DNA of 64,000 bases from Candidatus Gottesmanbacteria bacterium UBA6580. Its GTDB lineage: Bacteria > Patescibacteriota > Microgenomatia > UBA10105 > UBA927. Below are positions 7,018 through 51,544 of the stretch, in pieces. Under the pieces are notes generated by a model. The model did not search any database. It was not told the DNA's origin and saw nothing but the letters and a program-made list of their open reading frames with translations. Each line of letters starts with the position of its first letter. The first letter of the stretch is position 1. The stretch lies in NCBI GenBank assembly GCA_002433895.1, contig DJJA01000003.1, forward strand, positions 376,881 to 440,880, given 5' to 3'. The translations under genes and the position numbers were made by a program.

Positions 7018-8583
7018 ATGTTTGATGTACTCAAAACGTTATCGGGGTTAGTAAAACCCAAGAACACCCGTGGAGTTAGTGTAAAGGTAGCGCCGGTAGA
7101 AGACACAGCGCCTGTTATGCAGGCACAACCCGCTGCTAAAAAAGTCAAAAAAGGCGCTCAGCAACAGCCGCAACAGCCGGCAGTGCCCACCGTTGATGTC
7201 GACGCAATGCGGAAGCTCGCGGAAGCGCAGGCCCGGGAGATTATCCTGGAAGCCAAAGACGAAGCGCTCAGAATTCGTCGTGACGCGGAGACGGATGTCC
7301 GCAGACTGGAAAGCAGTGTGCGGGAACGGGAGATCGCCGCGGACCGCAAGGACGCAGCGCTTACAGATAGGGAGAAACGGGTAATCGAGTCAGAAGCCAT
7401 GATCATAAAGAAGCGTGAGGAAGCGGAACAAATTCGGCAACAAACCATTGATAAGTTGGAAAAAACCGCGCATCTTACCCGCGATGAAGCAAAAGAAATA
7501 ATCCTTTCTGAATTGCGTAACGAGTTGGACGCAGATATGGCGCGTGAAATCAAAGAAGCAGAGGCGGAAGCGCGCCTCGAGGCAGAGACCAAAGCCCGTG
7601 AGATATTGGTGGATGCCATGAAACATGGTGCCACCGATTACGTGCCGGAATACACGGTGTCGGTTATCAAAGTCACGGATGAAGAAGTAAAAGGCAGGAT
7701 TATTGGTAAAGAAGGCCGGAACATCCGTGCGTTTGAAACCGCGACCGGAGTAGACGTAGACCTCGACGAAGAAGGGGTTATCAGACTTTCCAGCTTTGAT
7801 CCGGTACGCCGTGAAATTGCCAGGGTGACGTTGGAACGGTTGCTCCGGGATGGCCGTGTACAGCCAGGGCGCATTGAAGAGCTCATTGAACAGGTGAAAA
7901 AAGAAACAGAACGCATCATGTTTGAGGAGGGGCAGAAGCTATGTCACTCTGTGGGGGTTTACAATCTCCCGCCGCCACTGATTGCCATGTTGGGGAGATT
8001 TAAGTACCGATACTCATTTGGTCAAAATATGATTGCCCACACGATGGAAGAAACAAAGATCGGTGTGGCTATCGCCCATGAGATCGGCGCAGACGTGAAT
8101 GTCGTACGCTTGGGGTGTTTGCTCCATGACATCGGTAAAATCGTTGCCGATAAAGAAGGAAACCATGTGGAGTTGGGAGTCGAGCTGTGTAAGAAATACG
8201 GCTTACCCCAGAAGGTAATCGATTGCGTAGCTCAACATCACGAAGACTCCGCATTCACGAGCGCGGAATCGATGCTTGTGTATATCGCCGACGCGATATC
8301 CGGAAGCCGTCCCGGTGCACGGTATGAAAATTATGACGAGTACGTCAAGCGCCTCAAAGATCTTGAGGAAATCGCCAAGTCCCACAAGGGAGTGACCGAG
8401 AGCTTTGCGTTCCAGGCAGGAAGAGAAATCCGCGTCATCGTCGATCCAGGGACAGTTTCTGACGCCACCACGGCGGTACTGGCCAAAGAGATCCGTGATG
8501 AAATCGCCAAAAAGGTGATCGTGCCAGGAAGCGTCAAGGTGACGGTTATCCGCGAATTACGCGCGACAGAGGTAGTCAAATAA
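7018..8583 (+). CDS. rny: Ribonuclease Y (KH + HD domains), lacks the usual N-terminal membrane helix
   Basis: KH motif IGKEGRNIRAFE, HD motif LLHDIGK, C-terminal RNase Y architecture; RBS AAAGGA; in-frame stop 5 codons upstream of ATG. Confidence 0.85.
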   Translation: MFDVLKTLSGLVKPKNTRGVSVKVAPVEDTAPVMQAQPAAKKVKKGAQQQPQQPAVPTVDVDAMRKLAEAQAREIILEAKDEALRIRRDAETDVRRLESSVREREIAADRKDAALTDREKRVIESEAMIIKKREEAEQIRQQTIDKLEKTAHLTRDEAKEIILSELRNELDADMAREIKEAEAEARLEAETKAREILVDAMKHGATDYVPEYTVSVIKVTDEEVKGRIIGKEGRNIRAFETATGVDVDLDEEGVIRLSSFDPVRREIARVTLERLLRDGRVQPGRIEELIEQVKKETERIMFEEGQKLCHSVGVYNLPPPLIAMLGRFKYRYSFGQNMIAHTMEETKIGVAIAHEIGADVNVVRLGCLLHDIGKIVADKEGNHVELGVELCKKYGLPQKVIDCVAQHHEDSAFTSAESMLVYIADAISGSRPGARYENYDEYVKRLKDLEEIAKSHKGVTESFAFQAGREIRVIVDPGTVSDATTAVLAKEIRDEIAKKVIVPGSVKVTVIRELRATEVVK

Positions 8584-24023: not shown

Positions 24024-25406
24024 TTAGTGTGCAGCAAGATTTTTTAATTCTTCCATCCGCTTCAGAAGGGCATCTCTGTCGTTTTGTAATGTGCCTGCTT
24101 CGACTTCAGCAAACAACGCGTCTAGTACTTTGCCGATAATGGGGCCGGGTTTAGTGTCATAGAGTTTCATGACATCATGTCCGTTTACGTGTAAATCAGA
24201 AACGGCAAATGGTTGCAGTTGCACTTCTTCCAGCCGTTTTTTGTATAACTCCAGGCGCCACGATGTTTCGGTGGCTCCACCGCCGAGCCTGTCGCCAATC
24301 CGGAGTGCCAGGATATGGGGAAGATTTTCTTTGCCAACTCTTCGGATAAAACGCCGCAACGCGCTATCGGTTTGGCGTTCATCGACGCTGAACTGATGCC
24401 ACCGCACCAAGGTATACAGCAGATCAGATTGTTTTTTGGAGAGCCGTAGTCTCCGCCCGATGTCTTTTGCGATATGGGCACCTGCCACCTCGTGATTGTA
24501 AAACGTGATAAGCCCTGTTTTGTCCTGGCGGAATGTTTTGGGCTTTCCTAAATCATGGATAAGGGTGGCAAGCCGCACCACGGGGTCGGTAGACGGACAG
24601 AACTTCATCGCCATGACCGAGTGGGTGCCTACATCGTATATATGATGCCGTTTAGGGCTTTTTTGCGGAGTGGCAAATGAAGATTCCAGTTCCGGCAAAA
24701 TATAAAGCAGCAAACCGAGATTTTTTAAAACCAATATTGCGTCAGCGGCATGGGTGGCAGTCAGAATTTTAAAAAACTCATCGCGTATGCGCTCCGCCGA
24801 AATTTGTGTGAGAGAGGAGGCGTGCGAGGAGATCGCCTTTGCGGTTTCGTCTTCTATGGTAAAACCCAGCCGCGCGGCAAACCGGACTGCCCGGAGCATG
24901 CGGAGCGCGTCTTCGGCGAACCGTTCAGACGCAATGCCAACCGTGCGGATGCGTTTTTCGTTGAGATCTTTTTGTCCGCCATACGGGTCGATTAAGCTTT
25001 TGCCGTCAAACGCGATCGCGTTTATCGTAAAGTCGCGCCGGGCGAGGTCTTCTGTGAGTGTTTTGCCCCAGGAAATTTTATCCGGGTGGCGGTGATCCTC
25101 GTATCCTTCTTCGCTCCGGTATGTCGTGATTTCGTAAATATCTTCAAGCTCTTCATTTCCGTTTGGCGCGGTGGTATCCCCCTGTTTTCTGATTTTTATA
25201 CCGACCGTCCCAAAGAGGTTGTCATAAAAACTATCGGGGAAAAGCGCGAGAATTTCTTCTGGAGTTGCGTTTGTGGTGAAATCCCAGCCTTTGGTTTCCA
25301 TACCCAGGAGTAAATCCCGTACGGATCCTCCTACTGCATAGGCTTCAAATCCCGCTTTTTTCAGGATGTCGATCACTGTTACCGCTGATTGAGGAAGGCT
25401 GATCAT
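24024..25406 (-). CDS. cca: CCA-adding tRNA nucleotidyltransferase with HD domain
   Basis: GGSVRDLLLG class-II NTase head, HD motif IHDLGK; consistent with tRNA genes lacking encoded CCA. Confidence 0.85.
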   Translation of the reverse strand: MISLPQSAVTVIDILKKAGFEAYAVGGSVRDLLLGMETKGWDFTTNATPEEILALFPDSFYDNLFGTVGIKIRKQGDTTAPNGNEELEDIYEITTYRSEEGYEDHRHPDKISWGKTLTEDLARRDFTINAIAFDGKSLIDPYGGQKDLNEKRIRTVGIASERFAEDALRMLRAVRFAARLGFTIEDETAKAISSHASSLTQISAERIRDEFFKILTATHAADAILVLKNLGLLLYILPELESSFATPQKSPKRHHIYDVGTHSVMAMKFCPSTDPVVRLATLIHDLGKPKTFRQDKTGLITFYNHEVAGAHIAKDIGRRLRLSKKQSDLLYTLVRWHQFSVDERQTDSALRRFIRRVGKENLPHILALRIGDRLGGGATETSWRLELYKKRLEEVQLQPFAVSDLHVNGHDVMKLYDTKPGPIIGKVLDALFAEVEAGTLQNDRDALLKRMEELKNLAAH

Positions 25407-25424
25407 ACTGATATTATACCCCCA

Positions 25425-27098
25425 ATGGCTAAGAAGTGGCAGATAAGTAAACAGTTCACTCCGATCCGATCGGAGTTAACCGCGGAGCTGATCATAGAAG
25501 ATATCCTCAAAGACAGGGGAATTATCACCCCCGCGGAGCGGGCAGCTTTTTTGGCTCCCCCTGATCCTAGCTCGTTGCGGGCAAAAGACGTAGACATTGA
25601 TCCTAAAGCATTGGCAAAAGCGATAGCCCGTATTCAAAAAGCGATAAAGAATAAAGAATCAGTAGTGGTGTATGCCGATTATGATGCGGACGGCATTACT
25701 GCCGGCGCTATCATGTGGGAAACGCTGTGGCACATGGGAGCAAGGGTAATGCCCTACATCCCACACCGCGTGGACGAAGGGTATGGACTATCGGAAAAAG
25801 GAATAGATGCCGTACGCAGCCAATATGACCCCACGCTGATTATTACTGTGGATCACGGGATAACCGCAAAAGAGCAGGTGAAGTACGCCAAAAAACTTGG
25901 AATAGAAGTGATTATTACCGATCACCATGTGAAGCCCGATAAGATACCGGATTGCCAGATTGTGCATACGACACTCCTTTCCGGGAGCGGAGTTTCATGG
26001 TTTGTATCCAAAGAATTACTTGCGGCAAGTGGCAACGATGCCGGTCAACACGAGCGTGAGCTTACCGCGCTTGCGGCGGTAGGTACTATCGCTGATTTGT
26101 TGCCATTAACCGGTATTAACCGGTCTATTGTAAAGTTTGGGCTTGGGGTGCTCCGTAAGACAAATAGGATAGGATTTAACGCGCTTATTACAGAAGCGGG
26201 GATAGCAAAGGAAGCGATAGATACCTATACCGTGTCCCATATGCTCGCCCCGCGGCTTAACGCGATGGGGAGATTAGAACACGCGTTGGACGCGCTACGG
26301 CTGCTTTGTACAAAAGATCAGGTAAAGGCAGATTTACTGGCGCAAAAGTTAGGAACAACTAATAAAGAACGGCAACAGCTCACCATAGATACGGTGACGC
26401 ACGCAAAAGAATTGGTACCAAAAACACTTAAAAATATCATTGTTATATCACATGAATATTATAACCCGGGGGTCATTGGGTTGGTGGCCGGGAGATTGGT
26501 GGAGGAGTATTGGCGGCCATCAATAGTACTTGCCATAGCAGATGGTTTTGCCAAGGCATCTGCCCGCAGTATTCCCGGATTTAATATTGTTGAGGCAATC
26601 AGAAGTTGCAGCGATTTATTGGTAGATGTGGGGGGTCATCCGATGGCGGCAGGTTTTACGGTGGTTGCGGAAAAAATTCCGGCACTCACAAAGCGGCTGG
26701 AAGCGCTCGCGGAAAAAGAGATTGATGAAGAGATGCTCAAGCGTGTGCTGAAAATTGACGCGGAAATACCTTTTACTATGGCTTCGGAATCGCTCTGGCA
26801 GAAGATACAAAAACTGGAGCCGTTTGGATTTGGAAATTATGAGCCGCTCTTCGCGTCTATGGGGGTATTGGTAAGTGATGTCCGCATGATCGGAGCCACC
26901 CGGAAACATCTAAAACTAAAGGTGCATATGCCGGGGTCACAGCGGGTAGTCGATGCGGTGGCGTTTAATATGGCTGAACTTTACGGGAGTTTACAAGGGA
27001 GTGATTCCGTAAACATTGCCTACACCATCGATATGAATGAGTGGAACGGGAAGCGGAATTTGCAGTTAAAGATAAAAGATATAGCAATACCGCAATAA
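25425..27098 (+). CDS. recJ: Single-stranded-DNA-specific exonuclease RecJ
   Basis: DHH motifs (ADYDADGITA, ITVDHGI, ITDHH), DHHA1 domain, C-terminal OB fold; track ORF starts at 25389 overlapping cca, the Met at 25425 is more plausible. Confidence 0.85.
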   Translation: MAKKWQISKQFTPIRSELTAELIIEDILKDRGIITPAERAAFLAPPDPSSLRAKDVDIDPKALAKAIARIQKAIKNKESVVVYADYDADGITAGAIMWETLWHMGARVMPYIPHRVDEGYGLSEKGIDAVRSQYDPTLIITVDHGITAKEQVKYAKKLGIEVIITDHHVKPDKIPDCQIVHTTLLSGSGVSWFVSKELLAASGNDAGQHERELTALAAVGTIADLLPLTGINRSIVKFGLGVLRKTNRIGFNALITEAGIAKEAIDTYTVSHMLAPRLNAMGRLEHALDALRLLCTKDQVKADLLAQKLGTTNKERQQLTIDTVTHAKELVPKTLKNIIVISHEYYNPGVIGLVAGRLVEEYWRPSIVLAIADGFAKASARSIPGFNIVEAIRSCSDLLVDVGGHPMAAGFTVVAEKIPALTKRLEALAEKEIDEEMLKRVLKIDAEIPFTMASESLWQKIQKLEPFGFGNYEPLFASMGVLVSDVRMIGATRKHLKLKVHMPGSQRVVDAVAFNMAELYGSLQGSDSVNIAYTIDMNEWNGKRNLQLKIKDIAIPQ

Positions 27099-27323
27099 AC
27101 AAAAATCCCCACATTCTTACCAGCGCTTCATGCCGGAGAATATGGGGATTATGAATAATAGATTTTCCTCATACACGCTTGGATTGAAAAAGTGAATAAT
27201 TTAATGAATTCACTCCTTCAGAAAAAGCGTGTATAAGGACAAAATGTCGAAATTGGGTGTGAGACCAAAGAAAATACATGGTAAGCAGCAAGTTGCTTAG
27301 TGTTATTTCTTTGTGAGTCTCCT

Positions 27324-27371
27324 GCCCAAAAATAAAACTATGGAGACCTCTCCATAACGAGGTCTCCATAG
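27324..27371 (-). terminator. Intrinsic terminator (minus strand) after small Cys/His-rich ORF
   Basis: 11-bp perfect palindrome CTATGGAGACC/GGTCTCCATAG followed on the minus strand by UUUUAUUUUU. Confidence 0.6.
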
Positions 27372-27389
27372 AGAAGTTTGCCCCCACGC

Positions 27390-27659
27390 CTAATGTGGTT
27401 GTGTCCGCTGTCGACGCTTCGGTTCGTGGCGGTGTTCGTCGTGATGGCTATGGTCGGGGTGTCCTTTGGAACACCACGTGCAAGTATTTTCGCGACCCGG
27501 GGTCGGGGCAGAGCATCTACCACCTTTATGGTGTTTTTTGCTTCTACAGTTGCATGTTGCCACAGACGTTTGTGATTTGGGTGTCAACGCCTGGATGACT
27601 TGTAAAAACATTGATTGTTTTATGGTTACTGGAACTGAACCTGTTCGCCTCTTACTCAT
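27390..27659 (-). CDS. Small Cys/His-rich basic protein (89 aa), unknown function
   Basis: SD AGGAG 7 nt upstream of ATG; CxC...C...CxxC then HPDHSHHDEHRHE His-rich tail; intrinsic terminators on both sides; region is open in several frames, so coding status uncertain. Confidence 0.35.
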   Translation of the reverse strand: MSKRRTGSVPVTIKQSMFLQVIQALTPKSQTSVATCNCRSKKHHKGGRCSAPTPGRENTCTWCSKGHPDHSHHDEHRHEPKRRQRTQPH

Positions 27660-27775
27660 GATTGACTCCTCTTGCTAAATGACTTGCCCGGATAAAATGG
27701 TTGATCGTTAAATTTTTTCACTGCAGACTTCATAAGCAAACCTCTTTTTTGAATTTTTTCGGTGATGTTGTCGGA

Positions 27776-27815
27776 TAAGGAAAAAGACAGAAAAGGACAG
27801 GCTAATTTTCTGTCT
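27776..27815 (-). terminator. Intrinsic terminator (minus strand) after small ORF A
   Basis: AGACAGAAAA/TTTTCTGTCT 10-bp stem, 11-nt loop, U5 tail on the minus strand. Confidence 0.5.
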
Positions 27816-27865
27816 TTATCATTGTCCAAGAACTAACTCTCAAAATTGTTAAGGTGCCAAATACT

Positions 27866-28045
27866 TTACTCTTGTCCCTGTGCCGTTTGTGTGCCAGCAG
27901 CGTTGGCGCTCCCTGTGTCGGGTGCCATAGGAAATATGACCGTCACGGACTGCGCCTCGTTGGTGACGGATGCGATCATCCATGCCACCGGAGGCCGTTT
28001 CTCGGGTACTATTTCTGCCGCTAATTGTTTGTCCGTTTCGTTCAT
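27866..28045 (-). CDS. Small hypothetical protein (59 aa) with strong SD
   Basis: AAGGAG-N6-ATG ribosome binding site; MNETDKQLAAEIVPEKRPPVAWMIASV...; flanked by terminators; a Cys-rich plus-strand ORF overlaps and is the alternative. Confidence 0.35.
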   Translation of the reverse strand: MNETDKQLAAEIVPEKRPPVAWMIASVTNEAQSVTVIFPMAPDTGSANAAGTQTAQGQE

Positions 28046-28164: not shown

Positions 28165-28190
28165 CATCAAAAAACCCCTCTTTTGGAGGG
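28165..28190 (-). terminator. Intrinsic terminator / attenuator within the minus-strand leader
   Basis: CCCCUC-CAAAA-GAGGGG hairpin followed by UUUUUU on the minus strand, about 115 nt downstream of a consensus promoter and upstream of small ORF A. Confidence 0.55.
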
Positions 28191-28312
28191 GTTCGTGTGT
28201 TTGGTTTTAAAAAGTTTTTTAAGCTGCCATCACACGACCCCCCCGACATTTCGGAGGTTAATAAGGGTCATAAAGTGTGATTGCTGCCAAGATTTCATAG
28301 TCACAGTCAATT

Positions 28313-28341
28313 ATTATAAATAGACAACTTATCTCTTGTCA
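28313..28341 (-). promoter_or_regulatory. Consensus sigma70 promoter firing leftward (TTGACA-17-TATAAT)
   Basis: Reverse complement reads TTGACAagagataagttgtctatTTATAAT; -35 hexamer overlaps the -35 of the divergent aspS promoter. Confidence 0.5.
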
Positions 28342-28363
28342 ACCGGTAATCGGGCAAATATAA
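28335..28363 (+). promoter_or_regulatory. Sigma70 promoter for the T-box leader and aspS (TTGTCA-17-TATAAT)
   Basis: TTGTCAaccggtaatcgggcaaaTATAAT, perfect -10, 17-nt spacer. Confidence 0.55.
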
Positions 28364-28369
28364 TAAGAA

Positions 28370-28556
28370 ATGAAGTACGCGATGATGGCCTGACAAGCCG
28401 GAGTGGCCCGGGGTAACAACCGGAACGGGTATGCCCGTAATAGCTCTAATAAGATCCGCCTACGCAAAAGCTACGGCGAGATGAAATAAGGTGGTACCGC
28501 GAATTACCCGTTCGCCCTTATACTATTACTAGTAAGGAGAACGGGTTTGTTGTGTC
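28370..28556 (+). promoter_or_regulatory. T-box riboswitch leader, putative Asp specifier (GAC)
   Basis: T-box consensus AAUAAGGUGGUACCGCG at 28485-28502; terminator ACCCGUUC...GAACGGGU + UUUGUUGUGU; candidate specifier loop CCUGACAAG; directly upstream of aspS. Confidence 0.6.
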
Positions 28557-28570
28557 ATAATGATAGATAT

Positions 28571-30454
28571 ATGAGAACACTCGCGTCACAGGTATCGGCA
28601 TTAGAAGGAAAAACGGTTGTATTGCAGGGGTGGGTTCTTGCGCGGCGGGATCATGGCAAGATCATGTTCCTCGACCTCCGGGACCGTTCCGGTGTTGTGC
28701 AGCTTGTTGGAAGTAAATCATTGGGCGATGCGCACGCAGAAGATGTCATAACCGTCACAGGACTGGTGAAGAAGCGGCCAGAATCGATGGTAAATGAAAA
28801 AATTATTTCCGGTACCGTGGAAGTTGAGATACAGGAAATTTCGGTTATTTCCAAAGCCCGTGAGTTGCCGTTTCCCATAGACACTGACGGACACGAAGTA
28901 AATGAAGAAATCAGAGCCAAATACCGCTATCTGGATTTACGCCGTCCCAGGATGGCCCGTAATATCCGATTGCGGAGCAAAGTCGTCAATTTCATCCGTA
29001 ACTTTTTATCAAACCGCGATTTCGTTGAAATAGAAACGCCAGTGCTAACCAAAACGACCCCCGAAGGAGCGAGGGATTTCCTCGTGCCGTCACGTCTGCA
29101 GCCGGGAAAATTTTACGCACTTCCGCAGTCACCACAGCAGTATAAACAGCTTCTGATGGTTGCCGGATTTGAGCGGTATTTCCAGATTGCACGGTGTTTC
29201 CGTGATGAAGACCCCCGCCGTGACCGCGCGTATGGTGAGTTCACCCAGCTCGACATGGAAATGTCATTTGTGACGCAGGATGATATTTTAACGCTTACTG
29301 AGGAGATGTTTACCACCCTCATCCGCCTTATGTTTCCGGCCAAACACATTTCCCAAACTCCCTGGCCGAGGTTGTCACACCGGGAAGTCATGGAGAAGTA
29401 CGGCACTGACAAGCCGGATCTGCGAAAAGATAAAAATGATCCCGATGAATTGGCATTTAGCTGGACAGTTGATTTTCCGCTTTTTAATGAGCAAAAAGAT
29501 GATGATTTCTTTTACGGATCCGGTGGCGCAAAATTTGCGCCGAGCCACCATATGTTTACCGCACCGCATCCCGATGACATCCCGCTTCTTGATACCGATC
29601 CGCTGAAGGTGCGGGGACTGCAGCATGATTTGGTGCTGAACGGATTTGAGGTAGGTGGCGGGAGTATCCGTATCCATCAAGCGGAGGTACAAGCGAAGGT
29701 GTTTGACCTTATTGGATTTAGCGAAAAACAAAAGCAGGAGTTTTCCCACATGCTCACCGCGTTTAGTTATGGTGTGCCGCCACACGGTGGGATCGCGCCC
29801 GGCATCGACCGCCTGATGATGGCGCTTTTGGGAGAGCCGAGCGTGCGGGAGGTCATGGCATTTCCGACATCTGCGTCAGGTGGGACAAGTGTCATGGACG
29901 CGCCCAGTAACGCTTCACCCGAGCAGCTCGTTGAGCTTGGCATTTCCGTAGCAACAATGGGAAACACGAAAGAAGGAGGAGGTAAAGCGGTGTACGAGCG
30001 GATAGTCGGGGACATTAAGGCACTTAAATTGGCATTTGAGCCGTACGAACACGAAGCAGTGCGTACTTCAGAAGATGCCGCCAAAATCCGGAATACGCCA
30101 CTTTATGAAGGCGCAAAAGCCCTCGTGCTGTATGCGGATGAAAAACCGGTCATGGTAGTTGTTCCCGGTGACCGTAAGCTCGATATGAAAGCGTTTAAAT
30201 CGCAGTATCACATCCGTGACCTACGGATGGCAACACCCGCCCAGGTGGAGGAAGTGACCGGTGTTACTATCGGCGCGGTGCCGCCATTTGGACATATATT
30301 TGGCATACCTGCATACATGGACGCAGCGTTTAAGAAAAACTCGCACGTTTCATTTAATGCCGGTCTTCATACCCATTCCATACGGATGAGTGAAAAAGAT
30401 TATGAAAAGATGGCGAAGCCGACTATTGGTGAGTTTTCTAAAATACTTGAATGA
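28571..30454 (+). CDS. aspS: Aspartate--tRNA ligase (GAD-less) fused in frame to a C-terminal YbaK/ProX-type aminoacyl-tRNA deacylase domain
   Basis: N-terminal OB anticodon domain, class II motifs 1 to 3 (FRDED, GGGSIR, GIDRLMMAL), normal AspRS C-terminal SPEQLVELGISV; then about 165 extra residues with a YbaK-like order of motifs (YEHE..KALVL..VVPGDRKLDMKAF..GAVPPFG..SFNAG); ATG at 28571 preferred over the track TTG at 28547. Confidence 0.85.
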   Translation: MRTLASQVSALEGKTVVLQGWVLARRDHGKIMFLDLRDRSGVVQLVGSKSLGDAHAEDVITVTGLVKKRPESMVNEKIISGTVEVEIQEISVISKARELPFPIDTDGHEVNEEIRAKYRYLDLRRPRMARNIRLRSKVVNFIRNFLSNRDFVEIETPVLTKTTPEGARDFLVPSRLQPGKFYALPQSPQQYKQLLMVAGFERYFQIARCFRDEDPRRDRAYGEFTQLDMEMSFVTQDDILTLTEEMFTTLIRLMFPAKHISQTPWPRLSHREVMEKYGTDKPDLRKDKNDPDELAFSWTVDFPLFNEQKDDDFFYGSGGAKFAPSHHMFTAPHPDDIPLLDTDPLKVRGLQHDLVLNGFEVGGGSIRIHQAEVQAKVFDLIGFSEKQKQEFSHMLTAFSYGVPPHGGIAPGIDRLMMALLGEPSVREVMAFPTSASGGTSVMDAPSNASPEQLVELGISVATMGNTKEGGGKAVYERIVGDIKALKLAFEPYEHEAVRTSEDAAKIRNTPLYEGAKALVLYADEKPVMVVVPGDRKLDMKAFKSQYHIRDLRMATPAQVEEVTGVTIGAVPPFGHIFGIPAYMDAAFKKNSHVSFNAGLHTHSIRMSEKDYEKMAKPTIGEFSKILE

Positions 30455-51091: not shown

Positions 51092-51544
51092 TTACTCCAC
51101 AATAAGCATGCCCTTCATGCCCATTTCTCTGTGTTTGCCTACCGAGCAATAGTATTCATAGGTTCCGGCTTTGTCCGGGGTAAATTCGATGATGTCTTCT
51201 TTTCCGCCTTCAATTACTTTGGTCCGTACGTCGAGTTCATCAACAACCCAATCGTGTGGCATCTTGCCGGTGTTTTTGAATACTAATCGTACTGGTTGCC
51301 CTGATGTAAAGGTAAGTGCGTTTAAAGAAAATTTAAATTCACTTCCTTCTATGGTGATTTCCCGGACACCGTCAGCAGTGACATTTTCGGATGAACCCTG
51401 TAAGTCAGATACAGGTGCGGGAGTGCTCGCGGCCGTTGTTTGTTCCGCGTCATTTGCGGTTGGTTGACCGGATTGATTTACATACCATATCGCCCCTGCC
51501 CCGAGCGCGAGCAGTACTAACACTATCAGGATATTATTTTTCAT
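51092..51544 (-). CDS. Cupredoxin (plastocyanin/azurin-like type-1 copper protein), exported
   Basis: Signal/TM anchor; copper ligands H...YEYYCSVGKHREMGMKGML. Confidence 0.75.
   Translation of the reverse strand: MKNNILIVLVLLALGAGAIWYVNQSGQPTANDAEQTTAASTPAPVSDLQGSSENVTADGVREITIEGSEFKFSLNALTFTSGQPVRLVFKNTGKMPHDWVVDELDVRTKVIEGGKEDIIEFTPDKAGTYEYYCSVGKHREMGMKGMLIVE

Follow-up and report, generated by a model that had tools for sequence, protein, structure and literature searches.

A Cys/His-rich small-protein gene and its structured 3' RNA between recJ and aspS in Gottesmanbacteria-related bacteria: a candidate zinc-stabilised nucleic-acid-binding protein

Between recJ and aspS of Candidatus Gottesmanbacteria bacterium UBA6580 lies a small gene, here called ORF89, which encodes a protein of 89 amino acids (aa). 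It was found in a stretch of 64,000 nucleotides (GenBank assembly GCA_002433895.1, contig DJJA01000003.1, positions 376,881 to 440,880 of the forward strand), referred to below as the window. There is next to no doubt that ORF89 is a genuine protein-coding gene. The overall best explanation of the locus, given a probability of roughly 0.55, is that ORF89 encodes a zinc-stabilised nucleic-acid-binding protein and is accompanied by a structured RNA on its 3' side. This reading is drawn from the Cys/His core of the protein, its basic composition, the adjoining RNA, and the joint inheritance and replacement of the two. The family is new and has an unusual ligand pattern, although its general kind is already known. 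A first-pass annotation of the same DNA had described a small Cys/His-rich basic protein and had left open whether the DNA was a structured RNA instead; its observation is confirmed and its interpretation is partly supported.

The family came to light through its neighbourhood. ORF89 occupies a 1.45-kb gap with recJ on one side and aspS on the other. A single-sequence word-indexed homology search with ORF89 returned nothing, and the exact product has no database record. Using RecJ as bait recovered nine syntenic loci in assemblies of the Patescibacteria, or Candidate Phyla Radiation (CPR), at 58–89% identity, the window RecJ being 89% identical to that of a Candidatus Gottesmanbacteria metagenome-assembled genome from this group. 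It was only via these RecJ-fetched loci that the family surfaced, and a profile was then built from them. The order CCA-adding enzyme, recJ, gap, aspS, and peptidase S11 (D-Ala-D-Ala carboxypeptidase) is kept in all related loci. The profile search found six proteins among 5.8 billion, and an exhaustive HMMER search of 1.84 billion cluster representatives gave 12 matches, comprising 11 family members and P0012, which was rejected as a spurious repeat protein. The family is confined to a Gottesmanbacteria-related subclade of the CPR, which are ultra-small bacteria of groundwater, and always lies between recJ and aspS. At one related locus, L009, ORF89 is absent and the whole insert is missing. 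The rarity of the family is partly an annotation artefact, and in L066–L071 ORF89 is intact but uncalled, even though the small gene upstream of it was called.

Length alone proves nothing about an open reading frame (ORF) in this region because other frames are also open. The earlier remark that the DNA is open in three other frames holds in the window, where ORFs of 65, 67, and 70 aa on the plus strand, and a further one of 61 aa on the minus strand, overlap ORF89. However, none of these spans the region, and in the related genomes the five other frames are all interrupted by one or more stops in every genome, whereas the ORF89 frame is stop-free in 11 of 11. With tblastn, the ORF89 frame found six syntenic loci (E = 7e-43 to 6e-14) at identities of 66% (L001) and 40–47% (L004, L005, L003, L006, and L007), and the competing frames lose their signal in the distant loci. 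Substitutions at the three codon positions number 15/15/36 between the window and L001 and 6/8/28 between L006 and L007, an excess at third positions in both. Nei-Gojobori ratios of non-synonymous to synonymous substitution (dN/dS) range from 0.10 to 0.22 in nine comparable pairs; one near-identical pair gives 0.30, a value that comes from two substitutions. In its open frame, dN/dS, and third positions, ORF89 evolves as a coding sequence under purifying selection.

The first-pass annotation had regarded a structured RNA as an equally possible reading of this DNA. ORF89 alone folds like its shuffled counterparts (z = -1.16), and Rfam families gave 0 matches over 27380–27700 even at E ≤ 10. The structured-RNA reading of the ORF itself is rejected because of these two results together with the conserved frame and the dN/dS; the structured RNA lies downstream instead. 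Rfam likewise has no family over 27380–27680, the interval proposed for this check by the annotation, and the protein reading is not refuted by it. At gathering threshold, the whole window matches Rfam at two tRNAs only. What could still speak for an accidental 89-aa frame, within structured non-coding RNA or as a spurious ORF in GC-richer DNA, is that the window has ORFs of 61–70 aa in other frames, that gene callers skip ORF89 in L066–L071, and that the exact product is absent from records. Set against a frame that is free of stops, a dN/dS of ~0.15, invariant ligand residues, an ORF that stays intact despite length differences, and the folding and Rfam results above, this explanation has practically no chance of being right.

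The proposal of a small Cys/His metal-binding protein fared well, as the residues in question are conserved in the homologues. Among 7 sequences, C36, C38, C49, A51, T53, C60, C63, K65, H67, H70, and H73 are invariant, and all 7 have a His at about position 45. When the set is widened to 14 sequences, C36, C38, and C49 are still invariant and conservation is at least 90% at C60, H67, and H73; the sole exception at C63 is a read-through database entry that is probably error-bearing. About 20 homologues share five conserved Cys and three to four conserved His, and the family signature can be written as C-x-C-x(5-6)-H-x(3-12)-C-x-A-P-T-x-G-x(4-6)-C-x-W-C-x-K-G-H-x2-H-x-H-H. This is a generic zinc-finger-like pattern, with at least four conserved Cys/His in knuckle-type spacing. 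Its eight potential ligands would be enough for two tetrahedral zinc sites, for example a CCHC and a CCHH knuckle. Judged from these residues, the ORF89 product probably binds metal.

The rest of the protein is less constrained in sequence and strongly basic. Family members are 78–92 aa long, and their N-terminal 30 residues and C-terminal Lys/Arg tail are variable and predicted to be unstructured. Eight members have isoelectric points (pI) of 10.0–10.9, ORF89 itself lying at ~10.5, and grand average of hydropathy (GRAVY) values of -1.1 to -1.5. The ORF89 product contains the peptides TGSVPVTIK and QSMFLQVIQALTPK, and the L006/L007 protein ends in ...DHSHHAG. A GGAG/GAGG box stands 5–10 nt before the ATG in every homologue, and the Shine-Dalgarno sequence GAGGAG that the first-pass annotation had assigned to ORF89, along with the quoted protein sequence, is present. 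In Pfam, NCBIfam, PHROGs, PADLOC, and PDB sequence profiles, ORF89 had no match better than noise (such as TIL_2, E = 0.04), and the family has 0 PDB sequence matches at E ≤ 10. In IMG/VR neither the protein nor the RNA motif H3 described below was found, and a phage or mobile origin was rejected on this basis. An HNH or His-Me finger nuclease was also rejected, as ORF89 has only CxxC-x5-DH, with no later Asn, His, or second CxxC and no Pfam match. Integron attC, dif, HNH, and SWIM readings of the motifs were dropped because their defining motifs are absent.

The 295 nt between the stop codons of ORF89 and recJ (27097–27389, minus strand) are highly structured, a feature that the first-pass annotation had missed. 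Their folding energy is -120.8 kcal/mol, compared with -65.2 ± 4.7 kcal/mol for shuffled sequences (z = -11.85), and the minimum free energy fold contains four hairpins, H1–H4. In a 14-genome alignment the 59 consensus pairs are formed in 98.1% of cases, vs. 90.2% in shuffled alignments and 40–49% in slid registers. Twenty pairs carry compensatory double changes, a count reached by 0 of 500 shuffles. Rfam has no match for this region. No reading frame is open through 27097–27389 in all loci, and a 72-aa frame at 27169–27387 (minus strand) was rejected as coding on this ground and because invariant 21-nt blocks ignore codon position.

The four hairpins differ in how they are conserved. H1 begins 18 nt past the TAG of ORF89 and has the arms GGAGACCUC...GAGGUCUCC. 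Its stem sequence is conserved, and in helix 1 of the alignment 5 of 12 pairs are compensatory and 98.8% of cells are paired. The GC-rich stem, T-run, and conserved pairing of H1 are those of an intrinsic terminator, in agreement with the strong terminator noted earlier. In H2, 2 of the 4 pairs of helix 2 are compensatory. H3 combines a covarying outer stem, in which 4 pairs are compensatory, with internal loops that are invariant and an inner stem, UUUUUCUGAAGGAGUGA / UCACUnUUUCAAUCCAAGCG, that is likewise invariant; in L074 the inner stem shows a compensatory change from U-A to C-G. H3 is single-copy in the window. H4 retains its T-run and contains a U-G pair that is invariant in 14 of 14 sequences and would mismatch on the plus strand, and the G-U pairs of H3 fit the minus strand only. 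The structure therefore belongs to the minus-strand transcript. The T-run of H1 is weak, or lacking altogether, in the lineages of L006/L007/L036 and of L071/L075 while that of H4 is kept, and because of this the ORF89 transcript probably continues, where the H1 run is weak, through H2 and H3 to H4.

Two database proteins, P0007 (186 aa) and P0010 (165 aa), consist of ORF89 fused to the frame 3' of it; an L066-like genome has lost the stop by a change from TGA to TGG. These extensions look like annotation artefacts over non-coding RNA. In L003, ~700 extra bases (7651–8350) separate recJ from H4, and H1–H4 stay with ORF89 rather than with recJ.

The H3 motif and the protein are inherited together. 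H3 lies 152–163 nt past the ORF89 stop in every locus examined, is also found 3' of the divergent homologues P0008 and P0009 (L074, L075), and is partial after the most divergent one, P0014 (L073). A metagenome scan with an H3 seed of 18 specified bases gave 54 matches of which 5 were genuine, all of them beside an ORF89 homologue or from the same clade.

The protein and the hairpins are also replaced together. In L008 and L072 the leader, the upstream small gene, H4, recJ, and aspS are all in place but ORF89 and H1–H3 are not, and the exact slot is taken by a different cassette, termed type B as opposed to the type A cassette of ORF89. The type B protein has 63 aa, is basic, carries CPxH-x10-12-CxxCGW, and is unlike ORF89. 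It is followed by its own different terminator and by a different conserved long hairpin with an internal loop, CAUCCACC-UUUUCCC-CACGAAUGAA (in DNA, CATCCACC TTTTCCC CACGAATGAA ... TTCATTCGTG AGCATTT GGTGGATG), where type A pairs a CxC...CxxC...HH protein with a UUCUGAAGGAGUGA hairpin. Homology between the two proteins is not demonstrable (hhalign probability 6.8%), and H4 is common to both types of locus. When L071 (type A) is compared with L008 (type B), the left flanks share 90% identity and the right flanks 79%, whereas the cassettes (ORF plus H1–H3) have no similarity. The boundaries, one ~90 nt 5' of the ATG and the other separating H3 from H4, are found again when L008 is compared with L075 and L072 with L005/L004. 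By RecJ and AspS, L008 falls with L071 and L075, both of type A, at 89–99%; by RecJ, L072 falls with L003 and L005, also of type A, and its AspS identities are nearly flat at 80–86%. Neither type B locus is the nearest relative of the other, and at least two exchange events must therefore have taken place.

From these observations a mechanism can be proposed. The gene makes up a self-contained cassette of a ~90-nt upstream region, the coding sequence, and H1–H3, with the shared terminator H4 next to it. Its protein would have a zinc-stabilised core of CCHC and CCHH knuckle-like halves between disordered Lys/Arg-rich tails and would bind nucleic acid, most likely RNA. The internal loops of H3, in the 3' region of its own gene, would be the best candidate for a cognate site, serving autoregulation or a small ribonucleoprotein. 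These parts differ in likelihood: the odds that the product binds nucleic acid are about even, and that it binds its own 3' hairpin is possible but doubtful. The fullest version, in which protein and H3 form a specific pair that exists in at least two non-homologous interchangeable forms, exchanged repeatedly in one slot that follows a hitherto undescribed leader of attenuator- or riboswitch-like type, is a tentative proposal that we consider rather unlikely. If the pairing is real, nature would have supplied two orthogonal RNA-binding zinc modules in compact form, and the locus would offer one of the few views of post-transcriptional regulation in CPR bacteria that have not been cultivated. 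If it is not, the locus still provides a clean new small-protein family and, as material for curation, two new candidate RNA elements. Annotation systematically misses small proteins, and as CPR genomes are tiny each conserved gene is informative.

Several points weigh against a zinc-stabilised protein that binds its own RNA. AlphaFold2 gives a pLDDT (predicted local distance difference test) of 61 at full length with 7 sequences and 56 for the core with 14, and Foldseek returned 0 matches in the PDB, meaning that no fold backs the zinc-knuckle reading. A Haloferax study reports that several of the predicted small zinc fingers of this archaeon bind no zinc (PMC11241148). No sigma-70 promoter was recognised directly 5' of ORF89. 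Recombination would move the ORF and the hairpin together regardless of any interaction, and joint replacement is only suggestive as a sign that protein and RNA interact. The near-invariant inner helix of H3 could be under a sequence constraint that serves something other than the ORF89 protein.

Other functions have been weighed against the same evidence. The Cys cluster and the stretch GHPDHSHHDEH could act as a metal buffer or metallochaperone that stores or delivers Zn, Ni, or Cu and has no role with nucleic acid. The conserved Cys/His ligands, a His-rich acidic stretch that is retained in composition across the family, and the sub-threshold match of the unrelated type B protein, in the same position, to HMBD (PF19335; E = 0.017, 15.5 bits vs. 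a cut-off of 23.6) are all consistent with this. However, the protein is strongly basic, and Lys/Arg-rich tails and a Lys/Arg-rich inter-cysteine loop fit nucleic-acid binders better. The conserved neighbourhood contains no metal transporter, metal-dependent partner, or metalloregulator, and no metallothionein or metallochaperone family matches. The first-pass annotation had drawn its metallochaperone suggestion from a cupredoxin in the window, but this gene is 23 kb away, outside the conserved recJ–aspS neighbourhood, and the suggestion loses its footing. A metal buffer is considered unlikely.

A small, very basic, Cys/His-rich protein with a strong Shine-Dalgarno sequence and its own terminator might also be a lineage-specific zinc protein associated with the ribosome or RNA polymerase, in which case the hairpins would be mere terminators or an unrelated small RNA. 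The zinc-ribbon ribosomal proteins bL31, bL32, bL33, bL36, and uS14 provide the comparison. ORF89 matches no ribosomal family in NCBIfam or Pfam, and its extremely narrow spread, with 11 members among 1.84 billion representatives, its absence from L009, and its non-homologous substitute in L008 and L072 are unexpected for a part of a core machine; such a role is very unlikely. Least probable among these functional alternatives is a conflict-driven system, with ORF89 as the precursor of a ribosomally synthesised and post-translationally modified peptide (RiPP), as a bacteriocin, or as a toxin for which the adjacent RNA or the upstream gene orf59 is the antidote. The cassettes would then reflect diversification through conflict, and two alternative cassettes at one locus with at least two exchanges, an acidic small protein (pI 4.4) just upstream, and an adjoining structured RNA would all suit it. 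Against this, the protein lacks both a signal peptide and a hydrophobic segment (GRAVY -1.3), the surroundings hold no gene for a modifying enzyme, a transporter, or immunity, there is no match in PADLOC, PHROGs, or IMG/VR, and orf59 stays 90% identical while the cassette swaps, which means that the two do not co-vary. Membership of RiPP precursors or anti-phage defence was rejected, with no adjacent modifying or defence genes and no family match.

The zinc-stabilised nucleic-acid-binding protein has relatives in kind if not in sequence. CCHC zinc knuckles bind single-stranded nucleic acid. In ORF89, C60-x2-C63-x3-H67-x2-H70 resembles a knuckle and lies in basic surroundings, but compared with the retroviral-type knuckle (C-x2-C-x4-H-x4-C) it has x3 in place of x4 and His in place of the last Cys, and Pfam scans gave no zf-CCHC match. 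The closest class is that of the haloarchaeal stand-alone zinc-finger micro-proteins. Among these, the C(P)XCG proteins HVO_0758 and HVO_2753 of Haloferax volcanii and Brz of Halobacterium are stand-alone, shorter than 100 aa, and often unannotated, and those studied are regulatory (PMC6562870, PMC10716476, PMC2253796). As in that class, a Cys/His metal-binding pattern is the only recognisable feature of ORF89. However, the ORF89 pattern is CxC...H...C...CxxC...H...H, the protein is bacterial (CPR) with a cognate-looking 3' RNA, and no sequence similarity was found. ORF89 does not belong to the Haloferax-type C(P)XCG proteins, which have at least two such motifs in fewer than 70 aa, since it has CNC and CTWCSKG in 89 aa; the type B protein of L072 alone has one CPHCG. 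HMBD (CPxH...CPxCG) is resembled by the type B protein, and type A has no such match.

In function, the closest analogy for the proposed mechanism is Com of phage Mu, a small zinc-finger protein with an mRNA hairpin as its target (PMC6483171). The finger of Com is of the C4 type, and the site it recognises is within the 5' translation-initiation region of a downstream gene, whereas the hairpin of ORF89 is 3' of its own gene with nothing downstream. Membership of the Com family was rejected, with no Pfam match and 0 PDB sequence matches at E ≤ 10. The ORF89 family is absent from viral contigs. On the RNA side, H1 and H4 resemble intrinsic terminators and 3'-UTR (untranslated region) hairpins in having GC-rich stems followed by T-runs on the ORF89 strand. 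They differ from plain terminators in that the H1 stem, like the H3 loops, is conserved in sequence where third positions of the coding region are saturated.

Table 1. Features of the ORF89 locus and elsewhere in the window. Positions refer to the window unless a locus is named.
Feature	Position	Strand	Remarks
ORF89 (type A) coding sequence	27659..27390	minus	89 aa, basic, five Cys, His-rich; ATG 27659-27657, stop TAG 27392-27390
Shine-Dalgarno GAGGAG of ORF89	27671-27666	minus	6 nt 5' of ATG
H1	27371-27338, with T-run to 27328	minus	13-bp stem, 7 G-C pairs, 8-nt loop, tail TTTTATTTTT
H2	27253..27329	minus	extended hairpin; core AAGCA...UGCUU at 27273-27288 conserved
H3	27166..27239	minus	long hairpin; 14-bp covarying outer stem, variable apical loop
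H4	27150-27104, T-run to 27099	minus	branched terminator hairpin, helices 5-7; abuts recJ stop
Type B cassette	L008 ~8052-8243; L072 2896-3087	minus (L008); plus (L072)	exact slot of ORF89 and H1-H3
recJ	25389-27098	plus	left neighbour of ORF89; stop codon 27096-27098
Possible upstream ORF	27656..27733	minus	25 codons (MKSAVKKFNDQPFYPGKSFSKRSQS, MKSAVKK...); own AAAGAGG box; putative coding
orf59 terminator hairpin	27775..27832	minus	AAAGACAGAAAA...UUUUCUGUCUUUUUCC; conserved; compensatory change in L006/L007
orf59	27866..28045	minus	59-aa acidic protein, pI 4.4; upstream of ORF89; Shine-Dalgarno AAGGAG; core RPPVAWxIAxVTxExxxVTVIFP
Sigma-70-type promoter and leader upstream of orf59	28165..28342	minus	TTGACA 28342-28337, N18, TATAAT 28318-28313; perfect
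Leader ORF	28230-28298	minus	22 codons (MKSWQQSHFMTLINLRNVGGVV); stop inside antiterminator strand; putative coding
aspS promoter	28336-28364	plus	overlaps minus-strand promoter; transcribed divergently
T-box-like leader of aspS	28373-28522	plus	42 bits vs. gathering score of 93; most of stem I/II region missing
aspS	28547-30454	plus	other neighbour of ORF89; T-box-like leader in front
Cupredoxin/plastocyanin-like gene	51092-51544	minus	Cupredoxin_1, E = 2e-16

Further small elements lie upstream of ORF89 (Table 1). The TGA of the possible upstream ORF overlaps the ATG of ORF89 (ATGA), which suggests translational coupling of the two. Elsewhere this ORF is truncated to 7–20 codons or absent, its ATG is ATA in L004/L005, and in P0009 it continues in frame into the homologue of ORF89. 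Beyond it, orf59 matches no family; its 17 database homologues are all hypothetical proteins of the same clade. It is kept where ORF89 has been replaced by type B.

The leader of orf59, at 28306–28165, is ~140 nt long and conserved in all 13 related loci, including those of type B. Its invariant segment GGGUCGUGUG has two alternative partners. One is CAC..GACC further upstream, a pairing that closes the small hairpin CCUCCGA-NNNN-UCGGAGG; the other is the likewise invariant CACACGAACCC, the 5' arm of the leader terminator at 28193–28173. These pairings would form a classic antiterminator/terminator alternative and make the leader a candidate new attenuator or riboswitch. In several relatives the leader terminator directly adjoins the start codon of the following gene, and in L006/L007 the Shine-Dalgarno sequence of that gene lies within it. 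Rfam returned no family for the leader, only sub-threshold matches to the Phe, Trp, and His leaders. All related loci have an open equivalent of the leader ORF, 22–25 codons long and sharing the conserved core HFMTLIxLR, and its substitutions have no third-position bias. The leader ORF is a candidate for an attenuator of the arrest-peptide style. On the opposite strand, the leader of aspS may be a reduced CPR variant of the T-box.

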